From positions 4,202 to 68,201 of the forward strand of contig JAFDBG010000002.1 in assembly GCA_019313385.1 (NCBI GenBank): a stretch of DNA of 64,000 bases. The letters are read 5' to 3'. Of this stretch, positions 12,745-35,268 are shown piece after piece. Every line of letters begins with the position of its first letter. Position 1 is the stretch's first letter. The notes under the pieces were generated by a model. The model had not been told where the DNA came from, did no database searches, and worked only from the letters and a program-made list of their open reading frames with translations. The stretch comes from Deltaproteobacteria bacterium. Lineage in GTDB: Bacteria; Desulfobacterota; Syntrophia; Syntrophales; UBA2210. The position numbers and the translations under genes are program-made.

Positions 12745-12788
12745 AAACTGTTCGTATGTTATCAACAAGGCAATCGGGAGTCCCAATA

Positions 12789-15317
12789 ATGTCCAAAACA
12801 AGAGTCTACGAATTGGCGAAAGAGCTTGGCATAGATAACAAAGAGCTTATCGAACGGCTGGAGAAACTCGGGATAGCTGTCAAGGCCCCTTCCAGCTCTC
12901 TGGAAGATAGTGATGCTGAGAGGGTGCGAGGGGAGTTCGCGCTGGGCGATAAGAATGCAGTCGTAGAAAAAAGAGTCAAGAGAACGGTTATTAGAAGAAG
13001 AGCGATTCGGCAGCAAGTTCCCGAAATTGAGGAAACTCCTGATGGACTTCAACCTGAGACAGTACCGGAAGAAACGATAAAGGAAACGGAAAGAGAACCG
13101 GTGGCGGTTTCAGAAAAAGACGTTCCGGCAGAAGACAAGGCGAGGGAAAAGAGGGATGAGAAGAAAGAAAAAATCGCCACACCATTAATAAGACCACGTA
13201 AGTCGCTAATAAAAATCATCCGGGAAGCTCCAAAAAAAGAAATAAAGAAAATACCTCCGAAAGAGAATGTCTCTCCCAGGCCGGAGAAGAGGGCGCCGGT
13301 ACATCAAGAAGTCAAACCCGCGCGCGCGGAGGAGACTAAGAAAGAGGGAAAAGCGCCGGCATCTAAACCTTCATATAAGGGGAAAAAGCCTGTTGAGGTA
13401 CACATAGATAATGAACAAAGACGCAAAAAGGTCTTTGTCAAACAACGTGTCGATAAAAGAGCAGGCCGATCCAAAACCGGTAAAAACAGGGAAGGGCGTC
13501 ATAGCTGGAAAGAGGATAAGGTTTCTGCTTCCCGGATGAAGACGACGGAAATTACAACCCCCAGAGCGATAAAAAGAAGGATGAGAATAGAAGATGTCAT
13601 AAGAATAAGTGACCTCGCGAAGAAAATGGGTATTAAGGCCGGGGAGTTGATCAGCAAGTTTGTTTCTCTGGGCATGATGGTGACGATCAATCAGTCGATA
13701 GACATCGATGCCGCAACCCTCGTTGCCGGTGAATTTGGATATCAGGTGGAATCTGTCGGGGCAGAGTATGAAGATATCATGCACAGGGAGGAACCCCTGT
13801 CCAAAAGCCTTAAGCCGAGGGCTCCTGTAGTGACCATTATGGGTCATGTTGATCATGGCAAAACATCACTTCTGGATGTTGTAAGAAAGACAAATGTTAT
13901 AGAGGGGGAATCGGGCGGAATAACTCAGGCGATAGGGGCGTATCATGTGCGTATCAGGGAAAAGGATATTGTGTTCCTGGATACACCGGGGCACGAGGCC
14001 TTCACGACAATGAGGGCGAGGGGAGCCCAGGTAACCGATATCGTGGTGCTTGTGGTTGCCGCTGACGATGGTGTTATGGATCAGACGGTTGAAGCGATCA
14101 ATCATTCCAGGGCCGCTGGCGTCCCCATCATAGTTGCGGTCAATAAGATCGATAAGCCAAATGCCGACCCGGAAAGGATAAAACAGCAGCTTTCGGACTT
14201 CGACCTTGTGCCAGAGGCGTGGGGGGGGGATACCATCTATGCGGAGGTTTCGGCGAAGGGAAAAACAGGAATAGAGGAATTACTGGAATTGATCCTCCTC
14301 CAGGCAGATGTCATGGAGCTTAAGGCCGATCCGGACAGACTGGCGCGAGGAGTTGTTATTGAGGCGAGACTCGACAGGGGAAGAGGCCCTGTGGCTACTG
14401 TTATCGTTCAGGAAGGCACCCTGAGAGAGGGGGATGCTATTGTTTCCAGGATGGAGTACGGCAGAGTACGAGCCATGACCAATGACAAGGGGTTCAGAGT
14501 TACAGAAGCTGGGCCTTCGATGCCGGTGGAGGTTGTAGGCTTTTCCAGTGTGCCGCAGGCCGGCATGGATTTTGTCTCTGTGGAAGACGACAAAAAGGCG
14601 CGGGCCGCAGGCGAGCACTGGTTGAGAAAAGAACGGGAGAAAGAGCTTTCCAGAACTTCGAAGATTACGCTTGAGCAACTGTATGAGAGGATTAAGGGGG
14701 GCGCCAAGGAGCTGAAAGTTGTTATCAAGGCCGATGTTCAGGGATCGGTGGAGGCACTTTCGGAGGCTCTCGTTAAACTCAGCACGGACGATGTGAAGCT
14801 GAAACTGATCCACAACTCCGCGGGTGCGATCACTGAAACAGACATCATGCTGGCGTCGGCGTCCGATGCGATAGTAATAGGATTCAAGGTCAGGCCTGAC
14901 GCGAGGGTTTCGGAAATTATCGAAAAGGAAGGTGTGAGTGTCAAGCTTTACGATGTCATATACGATGCAATCTCTGATGTAAGAGATGCCATGGAAGGGT
15001 TGCTTGATCCCATTTATAAAGAGGTTGTTGAGGGACGAGCGGATGTTATCCAGGTGTTTAAGGTGTCAAAAATCGGCACTATTGCGGGAACCCGTGTGAC
15101 CGATGGCAAAATGACCCGAAATGCCAGATTGAGGTTGTTGAGGGGCGGAACAGTTATTCATGACGGTAAATTCCTGTCGCTCAAGAGATTCAAGGATGAT
15201 GCAAGGGAGGTGCTCTCCGGTTTCGAATGCGGTATTGGGATAGAAAACTTTAATGATATCAGAGAAGGAGATATCATAGAAACTTATACAAAAGAAGAAA
15301 TGGCCAGGAAATTATAG
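12789..15317 (+). CDS. infB: Translation initiation factor IF-2
   Basis: ATG 12789 after GGGAG gives [14 protein letters not shown]. Lys/Glu-rich linker, then GTPase motifs [20 protein letters not shown] and NKIDK. Confidence 0.95.
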
Positions 15318-22766: not shown

Positions 22767-23033
22767 ATGAAGATCGGTAAGTTTCTGCTCGGAATTTTCA
22801 TTATCATAGTGTTTTTTATAATCTTTGGGAACAGAGGATTTACAGATTATCGTATGTTGAAGGAAAAACAGGCGGCGCTGGGCGAGACTAATGAATGTAT
22901 CGCGGCTGAGAATGATGAGCTGAAAAGAAAGATAACGTTGCTCAAGACCGATCTGCGCCACGTTGAGACAGTAGCGAGAAGAGAACTCGGAATGGTGAAA
23001 CAGGGCGATATAGTTTATCAGTTTATTGACTGA
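22767..23033 (+). CDS. ftsB: Septum formation initiator (FtsB/DivIC family)
   Basis: ATG 22767 after GGAAGGGAG. Single TM, a coiled coil, and VETVARRELGMVKQGDIVYQF. Confidence 0.8.
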   Translation: MKIGKFLLGIFIIIVFFIIFGNRGFTDYRMLKEKQAALGETNECIAAENDELKRKITLLKTDLRHVETVARRELGMVKQGDIVYQFID

Positions 23034-23052
23034 TGGAAAGTGGACAAACCGT

Positions 23053-24120
23053 ATGCTCTCAGTAAAAAATCTATTTTCCAGAAGCAGAAAGACCGCCGGA
23101 ATCGATATAGGTTCAAGCCTTATCAAACTTGTTGAGCTGCGGGAAACCTCAGAAGGGTACGTTCTGCACAAGTTTGCGCAGGTGCCTCTGGAGATGGGCG
23201 TCATAGAGGGTGGTTTCGTCAAGGATCACGACACCCTTGTTAAGAAAATAAAGGAGCTTTTTAATGTGTCCCGCTGCGGGGCAAAGAATGTCGTAACCGC
23301 TCTCTCCGGGCATGTCGTCATGATTAAGAAAGCCGGTTTCCGGAAAATGGAAGATGAGGAACTGCGTGAATTTATAATCGATGAAGCCGGGGAATATATG
23401 CCTTTCGACAACATCGGAGATATCAACTTTGATTTTCACATATGCGGGGAGCAAGGCCTGGATCCCAGTCAGATGGAAGTCATCATCGCTGCCGCGAAAA
23501 AGGATGTTACTGAAAGTTATGTCTCCGCGATCGAGAAGACGGGACGAAAAGTGACGATAATAGACGTCGATTCCTTCGCCCTGGAGACAGCCTATGAGGA
23601 AAACTATGAGTTTGATGCCGAGGATACAATTGCCCTGGTGAATATCGGCGCGAGCATGACCAATATCAATATTATCAAGGACGGGGAGTCTGTTTTTACA
23701 AGAAATATCCTGCTGGGCGGGAATTCCCTTACACAGGCCCTTCAAAAAAGACACGATGTTTCTTTTGAAGAAGCTGAACTGATAAAGCTTGAGGGGTCGG
23801 ACGATCCTGATAACATACAGGGAGAAGTTCTCAGCCATCTTGAACCCATTTTTCTGGAAATAGGGCGGTCTTTCGATTATTTCAGTTCAACGGCAACCGA
23901 GCCAAATATCAGTCATATTCTCGTCAGTGGTGGTTGCGCCGGAATTCCGGGCATAGTTGACACCATGAAAGAGAAGTTTCTTTGTGAAGTGGAAATATTC
24001 AATCCCTTTAAAAATATAGCCTTCGATAAAAATGTTTTCAGTCCGTCTTATATAAAGGATATAGGCACTGTCGCTACTGTAGGGATTGGCCTGGCCCTCA
24101 GGGGGGTAGAGAACAGATGA
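23053..24120 (+). CDS. pilM: Type IV pilus assembly protein PilM
   Basis: Actin-like ATPase fold start AGIDIGSSLIKLVEL; first gene of a pilMNOPQ series. Confidence 0.9.
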   Translation: MLSVKNLFSRSRKTAGIDIGSSLIKLVELRETSEGYVLHKFAQVPLEMGVIEGGFVKDHDTLVKKIKELFNVSRCGAKNVVTALSGHVVMIKKAGFRKMEDEELREFIIDEAGEYMPFDNIGDINFDFHICGEQGLDPSQMEVIIAAAKKDVTESYVSAIEKTGRKVTIIDVDSFALETAYEENYEFDAEDTIALVNIGASMTNINIIKDGESVFTRNILLGGNSLTQALQKRHDVSFEEAELIKLEGSDDPDNIQGEVLSHLEPIFLEIGRSFDYFSSTATEPNISHILVSGGCAGIPGIVDTMKEKFLCEVEIFNPFKNIAFDKNVFSPSYIKDIGTVATVGIGLALRGVENR

Positions 24121-24662
24121 TAAGAATCAACCTCCTCCCATATCGTGAAGAAAAAAAGAAGGCTGGCACCCAGCGTCAGGTCATCATCGGGCTGGTTTCT
24201 TTCGGAATCTTCTTCCTGCTGGCGGTCTCCCTCCACATCTATATGGTTATGAATATTGCAAAACTGGAAACCGAGGTCAAATCGGCGCGCGTCCAATTGG
24301 ATGCCCTTACAAAGGTGACTGGAGACCCGGAAAAATTCAAGGCAGATAAAGAAATATTGGAAAAAAAGATAGGGGTAATAAAAGACCTTGAAAAAAACAG
24401 GGCTTACCCGGTGCATCTCATGGATGAACTCGCTTCCAGGATTTCTCCCCAGAGTGCGTGGCTTAACAGCGTTGCGAAGAAGGACAATAACCTGCTAGTG
24501 GAGGGAGTGGCCGTCAATAATCCCGCCATAGCACAGTTTATGAAAAGACTTGAAGGGTCTCCCTATATCAAAACAGTGGACCTCATTTCGTCTAAACAGG
24601 CGGTTATCTCGGGAGTAAAACTGATGGGTTTTGTTCTCTTGTGTACGGCGGAAAAGGGATAA
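24117..24662 (+). CDS. pilN: Type IV pilus assembly protein PilN
   Basis: MIRINLLPYREEKKK followed by a single TM. ATGA overlap with pilM. Confidence 0.85.
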   Translation: MIRINLLPYREEKKKAGTQRQVIIGLVSFGIFFLLAVSLHIYMVMNIAKLETEVKSARVQLDALTKVTGDPEKFKADKEILEKKIGVIKDLEKNRAYPVHLMDELASRISPQSAWLNSVAKKDNNLLVEGVAVNNPAIAQFMKRLEGSPYIKTVDLISSKQAVISGVKLMGFVLLCTAEKG

Positions 24663-24665
24663 TAA

Positions 24666-25265
24666 ATGGCGATAGGCCTGGATGACATAAAGAAACTGTC
24701 TCTCGGGAAAAAGCTGATGATAGGCCTTGGCCTGCTTCTCCTCCTGGGATATTTTTACGGGTTTTACCTTCTGCAACCCGCCTTAGAAAAGAAGGCTAAA
24801 CTGGGTGAAGATCTGGAGAGCATCAATAGACAGATAGTGACAAGCCGGCGGGTAGCAGGGCAGATAAAACAGCATAAAAAAGAAATAGCCAAACTGGAGG
24901 GGACTCTGCAAATAATCCTGGCCAAGCTTCCGGAGCAAAAAGAAATTCCCCACCTTCTCACATCCGTCTCCGAAGCCGGGAGGGATGCGGGACTCGATTT
25001 TGTGCTTTTCGAGCCCATGTCCCCCCTTCCAAAGGAATTTTATGCCGAGATACCGGTAAAAATTGTGGTTGAGGGTAAGTATAATGATATCGCTGTTTTT
25101 TTTGACAGCGTGGCGAATCTTCCGCGCATAGCCAACATAACGGATGTTGAAATCAAAAGGGGAGAGAAAAGCGCCGGAGAAGATATCCTTAAGGCCTACT
25201 GTTCGATGAAGATATACATGTTTCTGGAAGAGACGAATGAAAAAAAAAAAAAAAAAAAGAAATAG
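24666..25265 (+). CDS. pilO: Type IV pilus assembly protein PilO
   Basis: TM plus coiled coil plus a C-terminal domain, in the expected position. The C-terminal KKKKKKK is encoded by the A19 tract. Confidence 0.85.
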   Translation: MAIGLDDIKKLSLGKKLMIGLGLLLLLGYFYGFYLLQPALEKKAKLGEDLESINRQIVTSRRVAGQIKQHKKEIAKLEGTLQIILAKLPEQKEIPHLLTSVSEAGRDAGLDFVLFEPMSPLPKEFYAEIPVKIVVEGKYNDIAVFFDSVANLPRIANITDVEIKRGEKSAGEDILKAYCSMKIYMFLEETNEKKKKKKK

Positions 25266-25755
25266 CCATCCGTTTAAATGGGTTGCGGCAGCGCTTGTTG
25301 TGCTGCTTTTCTTTCCTGTGACCGCCGTGGTGTATTGTGCCGGGCCGGGGGAGGCGAATGCTGAGACCTATAGATACAATCCAGAGGGAAAGGCGGATCC
25401 CTTCAAACCTTTCATCAAGATAGTGAAAAAGGGAAAGCCTGGGGGAAAAGCGCCGGGCACACAACTAATTGAAGGACAGGCCGCTTTCATCCCTCCCCTG
25501 CAGAGATTCGGAACGGGGCAGTTCCGTCTTACCGGTATTGTCCTGACCGGAAACAAAAGGATTGCCATGGTGGAAACCCCCGAAGGAAAACGTTATATCC
25601 TCCGCGAAGGGACCCACATAGGAGTAAATAAAGGCAGAGTGATAAAGATACTTTCTGACAATTTGATGGTATTGGAGAAGATAAAAGATTTTGAGGGAAA
25701 CACAAATATGGAACGTGTCATCCTTACACTTAGAAAAAATGGGGGAAATCCATGA
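25237..25755 (+). CDS. pilP: Type IV pilus assembly lipoprotein PilP
   Basis: Lies between pilO and pilQ. Signal peptide ending VVYCAG and beta-rich FRLTGIVLTGNKRIAMVETPEGKRYILREG. The stop overlaps the pilQ ATG. Confidence 0.75.
   Translation: MKKKKKKRNSHPFKWVAAALVVLLFFPVTAVVYCAGPGEANAETYRYNPEGKADPFKPFIKIVKKGKPGGKAPGTQLIEGQAAFIPPLQRFGTGQFRLTGIVLTGNKRIAMVETPEGKRYILREGTHIGVNKGRVIKILSDNLMVLEKIKDFEGNTNMERVILTLRKNGGNP
25240..25258 (+). repeat. Homopolymer A19 spanning the pilO 3' end and pilP codons 2-8
   Basis: Counted directly: 19 consecutive A starting immediately after the pilP ATG (25237-25239). Confidence 0.95.
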
Positions 25756-27494
25756 AGCCAGAGAGAAGAATCCTTTTCTTCGCCATTTCTTTCCTGACAG
25801 TCCTTCTGGTCCTGTACGGCTGTGCAACCGTCAGCAGTAAAACTCCCGCGGGAGTTTCTTCCGCGCAGGAAAAGGCTGGGGAAAATGCCGGCAGCGCCTA
25901 TATCAAGGGCGTGACCCTTGAAACGATGAAGGGAAAAGAGCAGGTATCCATCCTGCTTTCTGATGCCCCCGATTTTGACATATCAAGGGAATCGGGCAAT
26001 GCCCTGGTGATAAAGCTGCGGGGTGTATCTATCCCAGAGGGGATGGAAAAAGAATACAGCGGGGGAAAGCTGAGAAACCTAAAAGGGGTAACCCTTTATC
26101 AGAATACGACAAAGGGGGGAGACGAGGCATATGCCAGAGTACTCCTGAAAAGGATGGTTCCTTACAGATACAGGAAAGACGGCACAAAGGTAATTGTTGA
26201 TTTTGATGTCTCTACCCTGTCCTACGCAGCACCCCCCGCCGCGGAATATTCCCCGAAAGTCAACCCCGCACATGCGGCCCAGACCATAGAGATCACACCC
26301 GGGGAAGTCGACTTTGAGATCACGCACAGGGAAACCGACGCTCAGCCGGAAGAATGCGGCCAGTACACCGGTGAAAAAATGACTCTCGATTTCCAGGGCG
26401 CCGATATAAACAGCGTGTTCAGGCTGATATCGGAGATAAGCGGGTTCAGTATCATCGCGGGCCCGGGTGTAAAAGCCGAAGTGACGGCGCACATGAAAAA
26501 TGTCCCCTGGGATCAGGCCCTGGATACTATTCTGGAAGTAAACGCCCTCGGGAAGAAACAGTCGGGGAAGGTAATAACCGTTTTGCCTTTTGAGGAACTC
26601 AAGAAGGCCGAAGAGGAACAGCAGAAAAAAGATGTGACCCAGGGCAGTCTCAGGCAGATTGCGATAGAGGCAAAGATAGTAGAGGTAACGACCTCTTTTT
26701 CAAGAAAGCTTGGGGTTCAATGGGGTGCTGGTTTTAAAGGGAGCTGGAATGACAGGGATATTGCCATGGGGATAGGAAATTCATCTTCGGGTACTTTGAC
26801 CCTGCTTCCGCCAAGTGCTCCGAATGAAAAACCCGTGCTGCGCAGGATAGAGGGAATAGGATTGACAGGCAGCAGTGTTGCCGTAAATTTTCCTTCACTC
26901 ACGTCCGTTACCTCGCCGACACTCGGAATGCTGATTGGGACAAGCAAGTTGATTCTTGATGCCCAGCTGCAGGCGATGGAAGTTGGTGGCGATGGTAAGA
27001 TTATTTCATCTCCCAAGATTACAACGCTTGACGGGGAAGAAGCAAAGATATCGCAGGGGAAGGAAGTTCCTTACCTAGTTCCAGCTGCTGGCGACGAACC
27101 GACACATTCGGACTTCAAAGAAGTTGTTTTGGAATTGAAGGTAACCCCCACGATTACCCCCGATGAAAGGATTTCCATGGATATCTATGCCACGAATAAA
27201 GAATTGGATTGGGCAAATGCGGTCCTCGGTATGCCGGCTATAGATAAAAGCGAGGTCGATTCAAAAGTTGTAGTTAAAAATGGGGATACTATAGTGGTTG
27301 GCGGCATTTATAAAACTATAGAAACTGACAATACAGATGGTGTTCCCTGGCTTTCGAAGATACCAGCTCTGGGGTGGTTGTTCAAGACCGAGTCAAAAAT
27401 AAAACAGAAGAGGGAACTTTTGATTTTCATCACCCCAAGGATAATCGAGGCAGCGAATGCCGCCGAAAATTCCGGGAACACGATACTTGATTAA
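25752..27494 (+). CDS. pilQ: Type IV pilus secretin PilQ
   Basis: Signal/lipobox LVLYGCAT, an AMIN-like N-terminal region, and secretin C-terminus DGVPWLSKIPALGWLFK and RELLIFITPRII. Confidence 0.92.
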   Translation: MKPERRILFFAISFLTVLLVLYGCATVSSKTPAGVSSAQEKAGENAGSAYIKGVTLETMKGKEQVSILLSDAPDFDISRESGNALVIKLRGVSIPEGMEKEYSGGKLRNLKGVTLYQNTTKGGDEAYARVLLKRMVPYRYRKDGTKVIVDFDVSTLSYAAPPAAEYSPKVNPAHAAQTIEITPGEVDFEITHRETDAQPEECGQYTGEKMTLDFQGADINSVFRLISEISGFSIIAGPGVKAEVTAHMKNVPWDQALDTILEVNALGKKQSGKVITVLPFEELKKAEEEQQKKDVTQGSLRQIAIEAKIVEVTTSFSRKLGVQWGAGFKGSWNDRDIAMGIGNSSSGTLTLLPPSAPNEKPVLRRIEGIGLTGSSVAVNFPSLTSVTSPTLGMLIGTSKLILDAQLQAMEVGGDGKIISSPKITTLDGEEAKISQGKEVPYLVPAAGDEPTHSDFKEVVLELKVTPTITPDERISMDIYATNKELDWANAVLGMPAIDKSEVDSKVVVKNGDTIVVGGIYKTIETDNTDGVPWLSKIPALGWLFKTESKIKQKRELLIFITPRIIEAANAAENSGNTILD

Positions 27495-28600: not shown

Positions 28601-28652
28601 TTGATTTTTCGGAAAATTGCCTGTAATAAGGCCCGGGTTAAAGGCAGAAATT

Positions 28653-29288
28653 ATGGACAGGACATACCTTGAAGGCAGGAAATCTTTTTTGTCGGATATC
28701 AGGGCAAAGATGGATGAAGGATTGTATGATGACGCCATTACCCTCGCGGAGGAAAGATTGAAACTCTTTCCGGGGGACATGGATGCCTGTCTTGCCATAG
28801 CCTCTTGCCAGTCCGAGATGGATAGACCGGTAGAGGCCGGAGAGGTTGTTGAACAGTGGCACGATATCATGCGGGAACAGTCGCGGGTTTATGAAGTCCT
28901 GGGGGACGCGTACAACCGGAAGGAAATGACAAAAGAGGCGATAGATGCCTATATGAGATTTGCGGCGCTGAACACTGACCCGCTGGCATCCGGGCGTGTA
29001 TCTGAAAAGATTGCTTCATTGCAAGGCATTAGCACCAAAGATGAAGATGGGGATGCCGATATGCCGACAGATTTTCATACCGTCACCCTGGCCAGACTGT
29101 ATGCGAAACAGGGCCACTTCAAAATGGCAGGGGATGTGCTCGACAGAATACTGGAAAGCGATCCGGGAAATGTTGAGGCCGTGAAATACGCAAAGCACGT
29201 GAGACGCCTGATGGAAAAGGGGTGGGGGCCGGTCATTGATGAACTGGAGAGGTGGTTGAATGGACTGCAAAAAAAAAGAGGGCAGTGA
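28653..29288 (+). CDS. TPR-like helical repeat protein, function unknown
   Basis: Repeated amphipathic A/Y/L helical-pair patterns (EAIDAYMRFAALN, LARLYAKQGHFKMAGDVLDRILESDPGN). No catalytic motif was recognised. Confidence 0.6.
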   Translation: MDRTYLEGRKSFLSDIRAKMDEGLYDDAITLAEERLKLFPGDMDACLAIASCQSEMDRPVEAGEVVEQWHDIMREQSRVYEVLGDAYNRKEMTKEAIDAYMRFAALNTDPLASGRVSEKIASLQGISTKDEDGDADMPTDFHTVTLARLYAKQGHFKMAGDVLDRILESDPGNVEAVKYAKHVRRLMEKGWGPVIDELERWLNGLQKKRGQ

Positions 29289-30363
29289 ATCTTCCACGCG
29301 GGAAACCCGGATAGAGCGCGTACGATCGATGCTGTCCGGGTTTGATGTAGAGGGCATATTTTTTTTCGAAGAGGCAAATATCAGCTATCTTACAGGTTTT
29401 GCGGGGACGGACGGGGTCCTTTTTGTAGGCGGAGGGAAAACCCTTCTGCTGGTGGATGGAAGGTATATAACGCAGGCGAAGGACGAAGCGACGAGCTGCG
29501 ATATCATTAAATTCGGTGACAGGACGGAGGGCATGGCCGGAGTAGTCTCCGATCTGGGACTGAAAAGAGTGGGCATTGAGTCACCGGCGATTGACCTGAA
29601 CAGTTATCTTAAATTGCGGGACCGGGTGAAAAATGTCTTTCTGAACCCCCTGTCGGAGGAGATAGAACGTATAAGAATAATAAAGGATGGCGGGGAGGCT
29701 TCTCTTCTCAGGGAGGCCGCGATAATGGCGGCCCGCGCCCTTGAGGAAACGCTGGGGCATATCAGGCCCGGTATCACTGAAAGAGATATCGCTTCGATCG
29801 TGGAGATGAAGATGAGGGAGGCCGGAAGTGAGAAACCTTCTTTCGAGACCATCGTGGCCTCCGGCAGCAACGCCGCTCTCCCCCACGCGGTCCCCGGCCC
29901 CCGCGAGATACAAGACGGTGATTTTCTGATAATAGATTATGGAACCATGTACAGGGGTTACCACTCCGATGAGACATGCACCTTTGCCATCCGGAGTGTG
30001 ACTAAAAAACAGGCCGCTGTGTACGCTATCGTAAAAGACGCGCATGATAAAGCAGTGGATGGGGTAAAGGCCGGGATTGCCTGCCAGGATATCGACGGGA
30101 TTGCCAGGAGATATATCGGTGATGCTGGATATGGCGAATATTTTTCACATGGCACAGGACATGGCGTGGGACTTAACGTCCATGAACCACCAAGGCTATC
30201 TGAAGGCTCGAAAGATATTCTGGAGGAGGGGATGGTCATTACAGTTGAACCCGGCATCTATATTCCGGGCCTGTGGGGGGTAAGAATAGAAGACACTGTC
30301 ATGGTCGAAAAGGACGGATGTGAGATCCTGACAAAGATGCCCAAGGCTCTCAGGATACTATAA
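29260..30363 (+). CDS. pepP: Xaa-Pro aminopeptidase / M24 family peptidase
   Basis: Pita-bread metal ligands in IIDYGTMYRGYHSDET, FSHGTGHGVGLNVHE, VITVEPGIY and VRIEDTV. Confidence 0.88.
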   Translation: MDCKKKEGSESSTRETRIERVRSMLSGFDVEGIFFFEEANISYLTGFAGTDGVLFVGGGKTLLLVDGRYITQAKDEATSCDIIKFGDRTEGMAGVVSDLGLKRVGIESPAIDLNSYLKLRDRVKNVFLNPLSEEIERIRIIKDGGEASLLREAAIMAARALEETLGHIRPGITERDIASIVEMKMREAGSEKPSFETIVASGSNAALPHAVPGPREIQDGDFLIIDYGTMYRGYHSDETCTFAIRSVTKKQAAVYAIVKDAHDKAVDGVKAGIACQDIDGIARRYIGDAGYGEYFSHGTGHGVGLNVHEPPRLSEGSKDILEEGMVITVEPGIYIPGLWGVRIEDTVMVEKDGCEILTKMPKALRIL

Positions 30364-33909: not shown

Positions 33910-35268
33910 ATGAAAGGAACATTGAAGACAGCCCTTGGCGATATCGGCAGGGGCAAAACGGCTCCCTGTTACCTCATATACGGGGATGAGGATTACCTGG
34001 TAGAGGATGCCACGAATCGGATCATAGACGGCATTCTCCCCCCAAACCAGAAAGACCTCAATCTCTTTCATCTGGAGGGGGAGGATGAGGATATAGATGC
34101 CATATGTAATTCCCTTCTCACACCACCTCTCATACCCGGTAAAAAAGTTGTACTTGTAAGGAACACCCGTCTCTTTCACTCAAAGGCCTCGTCGGCCGAC
34201 GTTATAAAAGAAATCACCTCAAATATTGAGAAGGAACCCAGCAGGGCCGCGAGGGCGTTTACCTCCCTTCTGAAAATGGCGGGCTGGTCCATTGAAGACC
34301 TGAAGGATGGGCAGTGGAAGAAGATCTCCGATGCCGACTGGAAGAGCGCGACTGGTGGCGCGGCAGAGACGGACAGAGAAAAATGGCTTCCAAGGATGAT
34401 AGACCTGTGCGACAGGCTCAAGATTACAGGGGGAGGAAAACGGAAGGATACAGACAGGCTTGAAAATGTGTTGAAAGATGGTATCCCCGATGGCAACTGC
34501 CTGATAATGACCGCTGGCGCGGCTGATAAAAGAAAGAGGCTTTTTAAGACCATAACCGACGTGGGAGTCGTCCTTTCCTTCTCAAAATCCAGGAATGAAT
34601 CAGGCCAAAAGGGTCTTTTCATGGACACAGTGAAAGCCTCTCTTGTAAAAAAAGGAAAAAAGCTTACGCCGGATGCCCTTCTCGCGCTGGGCGAAAAGAC
34701 GGGACGAGATCTCCGGGATTCCCTGAAAGAGATTGAAAAACTGATTGCCTACGTGGGAGACAGAGAAACCATTGACAGAAATGACATAGATGCGGTTGTA
34801 AAAAAGACCGCGGAAGATTCGGTCTTCGATCTCACATCAGCCATTGTGGAAAAAAATGCCGGCAAGGCGCTTCAGACACTCCAGCAGCTTTTTGATCAGG
34901 AAGTCAACCACATCCTTATACTCGCGATGATAGCCAGAGAAGTGAGACTTCTGCTTCAGGGAAACACAATCATTGAGTCGGGGGAAATTCCCGCTTTCCG
35001 CTCCGGTATCGATTACGGGACATTTCAGGCCAGGATCTATCCCTCGGTGAAAAATCTGGTGGACAAATATGGCCGGAAGGGTAAATGGCTTGCAACCCAG
35101 CATCCCTATGTGATCTATAAGACCTTTAGAAGTGCTGGCAGATTTTCCCGGGAGGAACTTATCGGTTACATGAAACGCCTTGCCGATCTGGATCTTGCCC
35201 TGAAGTCCTCCGGCATAGACTCGGAGCTTGCGCTGAAACGCCTGATTATAGGGATGTGCCGGCAGTGA
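33910..35268 (+). CDS. holA: DNA polymerase III delta subunit (long form)
   Basis: N-terminal APCYLIYGDEDYLVEDA and a helical C-terminal half typical of HolA. 452 aa. Confidence 0.7.
   Translation: MKGTLKTALGDIGRGKTAPCYLIYGDEDYLVEDATNRIIDGILPPNQKDLNLFHLEGEDEDIDAICNSLLTPPLIPGKKVVLVRNTRLFHSKASSADVIKEITSNIEKEPSRAARAFTSLLKMAGWSIEDLKDGQWKKISDADWKSATGGAAETDREKWLPRMIDLCDRLKITGGGKRKDTDRLENVLKDGIPDGNCLIMTAGAADKRKRLFKTITDVGVVLSFSKSRNESGQKGLFMDTVKASLVKKGKKLTPDALLALGEKTGRDLRDSLKEIEKLIAYVGDRETIDRNDIDAVVKKTAEDSVFDLTSAIVEKNAGKALQTLQQLFDQEVNHILILAMIAREVRLLLQGNTIIESGEIPAFRSGIDYGTFQARIYPSVKNLVDKYGRKGKWLATQHPYVIYKTFRSAGRFSREELIGYMKRLADLDLALKSSGIDSELALKRLIIGMCRQ

Follow-up and report, generated by a model that had tools for sequence, protein, structure and literature searches.

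A recent run of nineteen adenines across the pilO/pilP junction of a Syntrophales bacterium, a candidate leaky slippery site in a type IV pilus gene cluster

The pilMNOPQ cluster in a 64,000-nucleotide (nt) stretch of an uncultured Syntrophales genome (assembly GCA_019313385.1, contig JAFDBG010000002.1; the whole stretch is called the window below) carries an uninterrupted run of 19 adenines, A19, where the end of pilO overlaps the start of pilP. Comparison with related sequences marks the run as a recent, derived state of a single lineage, in which poly-A occupies the place of an interrupted, lysine-rich linker of the same length. The reading we prefer, to which we give about an even chance of being right, is that A19 is a real slippery site of recent origin, through which PilP expression becomes noisy and varies heritably; its adaptive value is unproven.

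The run lies at 25240..25258, directly after the pilP ATG (25237-25239) and within the last codons of pilO, and is followed by a G at 25259; 25237-25265 reads ATG-A19-GAAATAG, and coordinates and translations bear out what a sequence-only reading of the window had reported. pilO (24666..25265, 199 amino acids (aa); Pfam PF04350, E=1.8e-38) ends with a TAG at 25263-25265, and pilP (25237..25755, 172 aa; PF04351, E=1e-12) overlaps it by 29 nt in the +1 frame relative to pilO; these and the other genes and signals of the cluster are on the + strand. In the PilP frame the tract supplies six AAA lysine codons, codons 2-7, and then base 1 of an AGA; in the PilO frame it completes a GAA with its first two bases, makes up five AAA codons and opens an AAG with its final two. 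The C-terminus of PilO is thus ...EETNEKKKKKKK, its tail being NEKKKKKKK, and PilP begins with MKKKKKKRNSHPFKW, followed by a hydrophobic segment and then a Cys (VVYC). The n-region is Lys/Arg-rich and the Cys of VVYC is conserved, and from these features and the hydrophobic segment PilP is probably a lipoprotein. A Shine-Dalgarno-like GGAAGAG stands at 25226..25232, 4 nt 5' of the pilP ATG, and is kept in the alignment of close relatives. As had been claimed, no alternative start precedes the hydrophobic segment: the first in-frame one is a GTG at codon 22 (25300-25302), inside the hydrophobic core. Both proteins, with their lysine runs, are identical to NCBI proteins of a metagenome-assembled genome (MAG), MBW2557303.1 (PilO) and MBW2557304.1 (PilP), so the run is part of the public record and no quirk of the copy analysed.

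The window has a G+C content of 48.9%, and the expected number of A19 runs in it, under a first-order model, is about 7e-6. Its second-longest homopolymers are 9 nt long (one A9 and one G9), and in 228 kb of related Syntrophales loci there is no A/T run above 9 nt.

Retrieval by PilQ places the window among uncultured Syntrophales/Syntrophaceae MAGs. We compared the junction with that of these relatives and with metagenome sequences found by scanning 241 million records for the conserved flanks, with a gap of any 5-35 nt between them. The scan matched two contigs, L028 and L029, each from a metagenome of its own; their shared stretch is 100% identical, and their nt identity to the window is 93.7% over 8.2 kb. 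Their junction reads ATG AAAAACCGGACGAAGAAAA GAAATAG, an interrupted 19-nt linker (A5-CCGGACG-AAGAAAA) of the same length as A19, and about 70 nt of left flank and 37 nt of right flank are identical to those of the window, with no change in length. Two more distant MAG loci, L003 and L001, have linkers of the form A5 (or CA4)-CCGGACG-A7, that of L003 being AAAAACCGGACGAAAAAAA, again 19 nt, and in 13 further loci the Lys-rich linker is likewise interrupted, its A-runs being 4-8 long; no junction A-run in any relative compared is longer than 8. The 29-nt overlap of pilO and pilP is itself conserved across the clade. At the protein level, the 25 closest of 41 PilP homologues have an interrupted Lys/Arg-rich N-terminus, usually MKNR[TI]KKRN, and the 15 closest of 140 PilO homologues an interrupted tail, usually NEKPDEKKK; among the homologues compared, the lysine run is confined to the window's own PilO and PilP. 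The scan of the 241 million metagenome records returned the ancestral allele only and no variant of tract length, and exact-protein look-ups of the window's PilQ, PilP and P0001 found no other encoding contig. Given the interrupted linker of equal length in the relatives and the identical flanks, the run is therefore recent and in-register and is not a conserved switch; comparison of the tract in related genomes thus went against its conservation, in the nearest population as in the homologues.

The window and L028/L029 differ at seven of the 19 positions, and at all seven the window has A; elsewhere between the window and L028, substitutions to A make up 31%. Because of this contrast we favour a homopolymer-generating process over random substitution, and independent point substitutions were rejected as the origin of the run. 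Substitution clusters as dense as that at A19 do occur elsewhere, in fast-evolving segments of pilP and pilQ. The process could have been a deletion followed by slippage expansion filtered for frame, or misalignment-templated substitution at the edges of the existing runs. Poly-A is the only sequence able to encode lysine in two overlapping frames, and since it does so in both it is tolerated as PilO tail and as the positively charged n-region of the PilP signal peptide.

The 3' end of the run forms part of an A_AAA_AAG heptamer of the dnaX -1 type (25251-25259), in the zero frame of PilO and just 5' of its stop, which is found also in L001 and L003; as a conserved recoding signal it was rejected, being absent from L028/L029 (GAAGAAAAG). 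About 30 nt 3' of A19, in the region of the PilP signal peptide, lies a terminator-like hairpin (25287-25307, GGCAGCGCTTGTTGTGCTGCT with a T-rich tail), whose sequence is present in relatives as well. We made no use of it as an added source of polarity when pilP goes untranslated, since such matches occur at chance level (7 found, 6.6 expected).

The consequences of a change in tract length were followed by simulating variants from A13 to A25. Full-length PilP is produced at 13, 16, 19, 22 and 25 only, all other lengths being PilP-OFF. At lengths of 1 mod 3, PilO and PilP are separate proteins (199 and 172 aa at A19) and translational coupling to pilQ is kept. The claim that a slip puts PilP out of frame is upheld by this, as regards the product of the pilP ATG; the accompanying claim, that a slip of one base in either direction alters only the PilO tail, is not. 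With one A more (A20), PilO acquires a 19-aa out-of-frame tail that ends at 25321 and brings it to 218 aa, the pilP ATG gives Met and eight Lys, and coupling to pilQ is lost. With one A fewer (A18), PilO reads into the whole of PilP as a 362-aa fusion terminating on the pilQ ATGA, coupling is kept, and the product of the pilP ATG is a 27-aa peptide. A third-frame stop codon at 25319..25321 ends both the extended PilO of the +1 state and the short pilP-ATG peptide of the -1 state. The stop of pilP and the start of pilQ do overlap as had been described, TGA and ATG sharing ATGA at 25752-25755; the drop in pilQ translation expected from this holds for the +1 state but not for the -1 state, in which the ATGA is still reached, and pilQ also has a Shine-Dalgarno sequence of its own (GGGGGA, 25741-25746, 5 nt 5' of its ATG). 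The 362-aa fusion is probably non-functional, as it places the PilP signal peptide and lipobox Cys behind a periplasmic domain: by established Sec/lipoprotein (Lol) biology, PilP with an internal signal peptide would not be exported and lipidated normally. No PilO-PilP fusion of about 362 aa is found among the approximately 180 homologues recovered, whose lengths are 138-216 aa, and the protein and metagenome collections hold no frameshifted 218-aa PilO; the PilO homologues longer than 206 aa (213 and 216) are distant and have unrelated tails.

pilP is under continued purifying selection. Its ratio of nonsynonymous to synonymous substitution rates (dN/dS) is 0.39, beside 0.47 for pilN, 0.44 for pilO and 0.33 for pilQ, the pil genes spanning 0.31-0.47 against 0.07-0.24 in neighbouring housekeeping genes; its lineage-specific residues number 13 in the window versus 4-11 in relatives, which we judged to be no excess. 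Decay of pilP in the wake of a loss-prone tract was therefore rejected, its dN/dS being like that of the neighbouring pil genes and its lineage-specific changes not being in excess. In the window lineage, PilP has lost charge at residues 41-132 (25357-25632) through D41N, E64K, E80G, E94G, E95Q and E132K; with these negative charges gone the protein is becoming more basic, quite apart from the lysine run. In pilQ, identity to L029 falls abruptly in the 3' part (about 26650-27453, the region of the secretin domain), from 90-98% to 67-80%. The step near 26650 is sharp, with about 93% on one side and about 67% on the other, and suggests either recombination at this point or a mosaic secretin. One relative, L005 (CAXXKT010000001.1, a Syntrophales MAG with a 2.79-Mb contig), has a G10 run within pilO (...EQRGGGDIL..., L005:3452-3461), in frame and about 80 nt before the stop, the sole homopolymer of at least 10 nt in the 228 kb of relatives. 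This may be a second slippery site that arose separately in the operon, or else a homopolymer error of long-read sequencing. The fast evolution of the pil genes, the drop in pilQ and the G10 of L005 are weak context that favours selection on the pilus machine, and are not decisive.

From the length of the tract we infer its instability, slippage at it and a resulting phenotype, as follows. Poly-A would have replaced the interrupted linker base for base, the assembled length being one that keeps both genes in frame, and replication slippage at A19 would then generate heritable variants of DNA length. After a +1 slip, PilO would carry its 19-aa junk tail, PilP would be reduced to a nine-residue remnant, and ribosomes would not cross pilP, leaving pilQ uncoupled; after a -1 slip the PilO-PilP fusion would be made and ribosomes would still be delivered to the ATGA of pilQ. 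On top of this, slippage of RNA polymerase on a 19-nt rA:dT hybrid and sliding of ribosomes on AAA codons would yield products in all three frames from any one genotype, and this spread of frames would lower PilP in ON cells and partly rescue OFF cells. The site would thus be leaky, three-state and hypermutable, not a clean ON/OFF device, and may be either a nascent contingency locus for type IV pili kept by selection or an incidental slippery mutation. We expect leakiness in place of binary switching because A19 is far above the lengths at which RNA polymerase slippage (about A9) and ribosome sliding (A11) set in. Selection acts against coding A/T runs once they reach about 9 nt, since these provoke RNA polymerase slippage and hypermutability in replication (PMC1088944); the mRNAs made from the A11 tract of tssM1 have 10-15 A (PMC4256274), and transcriptional insertions grow exponentially as A/T runs lengthen (PMC5574713); on A11, ribosomes already slide robustly and terminate prematurely (PMC4363877); and repeat frames scored as OFF can stay partly expressed (bioRxiv 10.64898/2026.04.01.715767). 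A direct effect of A19 on initiation, by unfolding the start region of pilP, was rejected, predicted structure and minimum free energy (-12.3 kcal/mol) being the same for A19 and for the ancestral sequence.

Several points weigh against this leaky, slippery site. The length of A19 is known from the assembled sequence of one assembly (lineage cluster size 1), and it equals that of the ancestral linker, where a frame-selected walk by slippage would land in a minority of cases and an artefact arising in place would land always. Several loci per genome, a "phasome", are a feature of contingency loci; within the 64-kb window A19 is the one run above 9 nt, and the window gives no hint that contingency loci are used throughout the genome. 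The slippage thresholds derive from Escherichia coli, Buchnera and Citrobacter, and some bacteria live with long A/T runs, it seems because they suppress slippage (PMC1088944).

The chief competitor is an artefact of assembly, consensus or sequencing, the true sequence being an interrupted linker or a poly-A of another length; we think it unlikely, even if we include the milder possibility of a genuine tract whose length is wrong by one or two bases. It would account for the run's filling exactly the 19 ancestral linker positions between perfectly conserved flanks and for its presence in one MAG assembly only. To our knowledge, no short-read error mode turns CCGGACG..G into A's in a consensus with the register kept. 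Furthermore, coding indels between the window and L028 are all multiples of 3 and the window genes are intact, 63 long open reading frames tiling it, so the assembly is not prone to homopolymer errors; the length found keeps both genes in frame, a one-in-three chance were it random; and the peptides encoded, a lysine tail and a lysine n-region, are functionally sensible. The closest named relatives, the AB_3033 bins L001 and L003, do come from short-read MAG projects, in which coverage may be low and stutter in the polymerase chain reaction affects long homopolymers; they are from Guaymas Basin sediment, and IDBA-UD was used to assemble their Illumina HiSeq 4000 reads (PMC10290634). The MAG of the window may stem from the same project. 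A real run may still be a neutral and effectively stable stretch of lysine codons that polymerases and mismatch repair tolerate, with no regulatory or phenotypic effect beyond PilP N3K, R4K and T5K and a Lys-rich PilO tail. These changes are conservative for an n-region and a disordered tail, the predicted fold of the start region is unaltered, as noted above, and certain bacteria carry many long A/T runs without counter-selection (PMC1088944). Such neutrality strikes us as improbable: long runs seem costly, to judge from their absence above 9 nt in the clade and in the rest of the window, and A19 is about twice every published threshold.

The proposal that A19 is a phase-variation switch fares in part well and in part badly. 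As a selected contingency locus, it would toggle PilP, and by polarity PilQ, cleanly ON and OFF through slipped-strand mispairing, maintaining piliated and non-piliated subpopulations under, for example, pressure from pilus-specific phages (type IV pili are common phage receptors) or alternation of attachment and dispersal. The anatomy suits: in the simulation a length change of a single base in either direction switches full-length PilP, and A19 is well above the instability threshold of about 8-9 nt, known tracts being A8-A9 and G9-20. Precedents exist in the G9-20 of Neisseria pilC and in the poly-A tracts of Vibrio cholerae wbeL and manA under phage selection, and the raised dN/dS of the pil genes and the mosaic breakpoint in pilQ fit diversifying pressure on the machine; the G10 in pilO of L005 also speaks for this account. 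Established tracts, however, are conserved and vary in length, whereas no relative compared, not even the one at 94% identity, has the tract at this site (L028/L029, L001, L003, the 13 further loci and the homologues), and no length variants are on record in protein and metagenome collections. A-tracts, unlike G-tracts, are strongly prone to RNA polymerase slippage, which makes binary behaviour unlikely, and pilQ has its own Shine-Dalgarno sequence and retains coupling in the -1 state. We accordingly regard a selected, clean switch as a distinctly doubtful account of the run. With the relatives showing the run to be very recent, only read-level data could carry the claim of a switch. Programmed transcriptional slippage, making a PilO-PilP fusion alongside the separate proteins in the manner of tssM1, has hardly any credence with us. 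A19 passes the minimum of about 9 nt for a coding A/T run at which such slippage occurs; transcripts whose tract has changed by a net -1 (or +2) would carry translation from PilO through full-length PilP without meeting a stop, and a precedent is known in a gene of an envelope-spanning machine that needs both products (PMC4256274). Against it, conservation among orthologues is wanting, the run being unique to this genome and present in no relative compared; no natural fusion occurs among the homologues recovered; and in the 362-aa frame opened by a net -1 the signal peptide and Cys of PilP would sit behind a periplasmic domain, so that export and lipidation would fail and function is doubtful. 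A more ambitious version of the slippery site, and a long shot, is a newly evolved three-state "rheostat" that diversifies how many type IV pilus machines each cell of this uncultured sediment syntroph has. DNA slippage would set which of three states is inherited, and slippage of RNA polymerase and ribosomes would add non-heritable noise; the driver might be predation by pilus phages or a change between pilus-dependent and pilus-independent lifestyles, for example, and this pressure would also show in the G10 of L005 pilO and in the mosaic structure of pilQ.

Among known systems, the nearest functional analogue is the tract of pilC1/pilC2 in Neisseria gonorrhoeae and N. meningitidis, like A19 a long homopolymer near the 5' end of the coding sequence of a gene for type IV pilus biogenesis. 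Frameshifts in this G9-20 tract reportedly change piliation (Jonsson et al. 1991, cited in PMC5953494), and the tract is conserved and length-polymorphic across many strains, in 145/205 alleles (PMC5953494). A19 differs in base (A, not G), in gene (pilP, not pilC/PilY1) and in spanning an overlap of two genes in place of one; and the pilC case is experimentally proven, whereas A19 is found in one genome and known from sequence. With wbeL and manA of V. cholerae O1, the nearest poly-A analogues, it shares a poly-A inside open reading frames of a cell-surface or phage-receptor pathway. Single-A deletions in their A8 and A9 tracts truncate the proteins and are phage-selected, and the tracts are present in all 37 O1 strains, unchanged in wbeL and shortened to A8 in two for manA (PMC3441752); these are conserved tracts of 8-9 nt, unlike the lineage-specific 19 nt here. 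The A11 of tssM1 in Citrobacter rodentium and Yersinia, the nearest analogue as regards slippage, is likewise a poly-A at the end of a reading frame for a membrane component of an envelope-spanning machine (PMC4256274). RNA polymerase slippage there joins the frame to the one downstream, the genome-encoded frame being interrupted, both products being required and the site being conserved in a second genus (PMC4256274); at A19 slippage is predicted only, the separate in-frame PilO and PilP are ancestral and the fusion is probably non-functional. Coding runs of at least 11 A, on which ribosomes slide, lead to heterogeneous mRNAs and proteins and to less protein (PMC4363877), as we would expect of A19. 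Ribosome sliding and poly(A) rescue are general error phenomena that define no gene family. Tamas and colleagues reportedly described, in 2008, rescue of frameshifted genes by poly(A) tracts in endosymbionts. In gene order, Pfam domains and tight overlaps the cluster is that of a type IVa PilMNOP alignment subcomplex with its PilQ secretin, and A19 alone is unusual. That the run works like a hypermutable homopolymer site is plausible and unproven, and we stop short of counting it among the established phase-variation loci.

Should the tract prove real and variable, homopolymer phase variation of type IV pili, so far found mainly in host-adapted pathogens such as Neisseria, would extend to uncultured, free-living anaerobic Syntrophales, and the gene overlap would turn one slippery tract into three protein outcomes instead of two. 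It also carries a caution for work with MAGs, in that one long homopolymer at the start of a gene decides whether that gene is annotated as intact.

The identity of the cluster as a type IVa pilus PilMNOPQ module is confirmed: PF11104, PF05137, PF04350, PF04351 and PF00263 occur in PilM-N-O-P-secretin order, all above their gathering thresholds. pilM (23026..24120; PilM_2, E=4.7e-71) is its first gene and overlaps the start of pilN (24117..24662; PilN, E=1.4e-15) by 4 nt, and pilQ (25752..27494; Secretin, E=4.9e-50) encodes a secretin of 580 aa. The surroundings are housekeeping genes, nusA-infB-rbfA-truB-pnp-dut upstream and queF, a TPR gene and an M24 peptidase gene downstream. The G9, the longest G/C run of the window, is at 14221-14229 inside the essential gene infB (initiation factor IF-2, 12756-15317). 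The A9 (29269-29277) lies in a second 29-nt, +1-frame overlap (29260-29288), between the TPR gene (28617-29288, with the tail ...LQKKRGQ) and the M24 peptidase gene (29260-30363, MDCKKKEG...); it encodes Lys in both frames, has the architecture seen at pilO/pilP and is of a length at the published threshold for RNA polymerase slippage. Further downstream, a holA-like reading frame (DNA polymerase III delta, 33910-35268), of which Pfam matches cover parts only, has 452 aa and seems longer than typical delta subunits.

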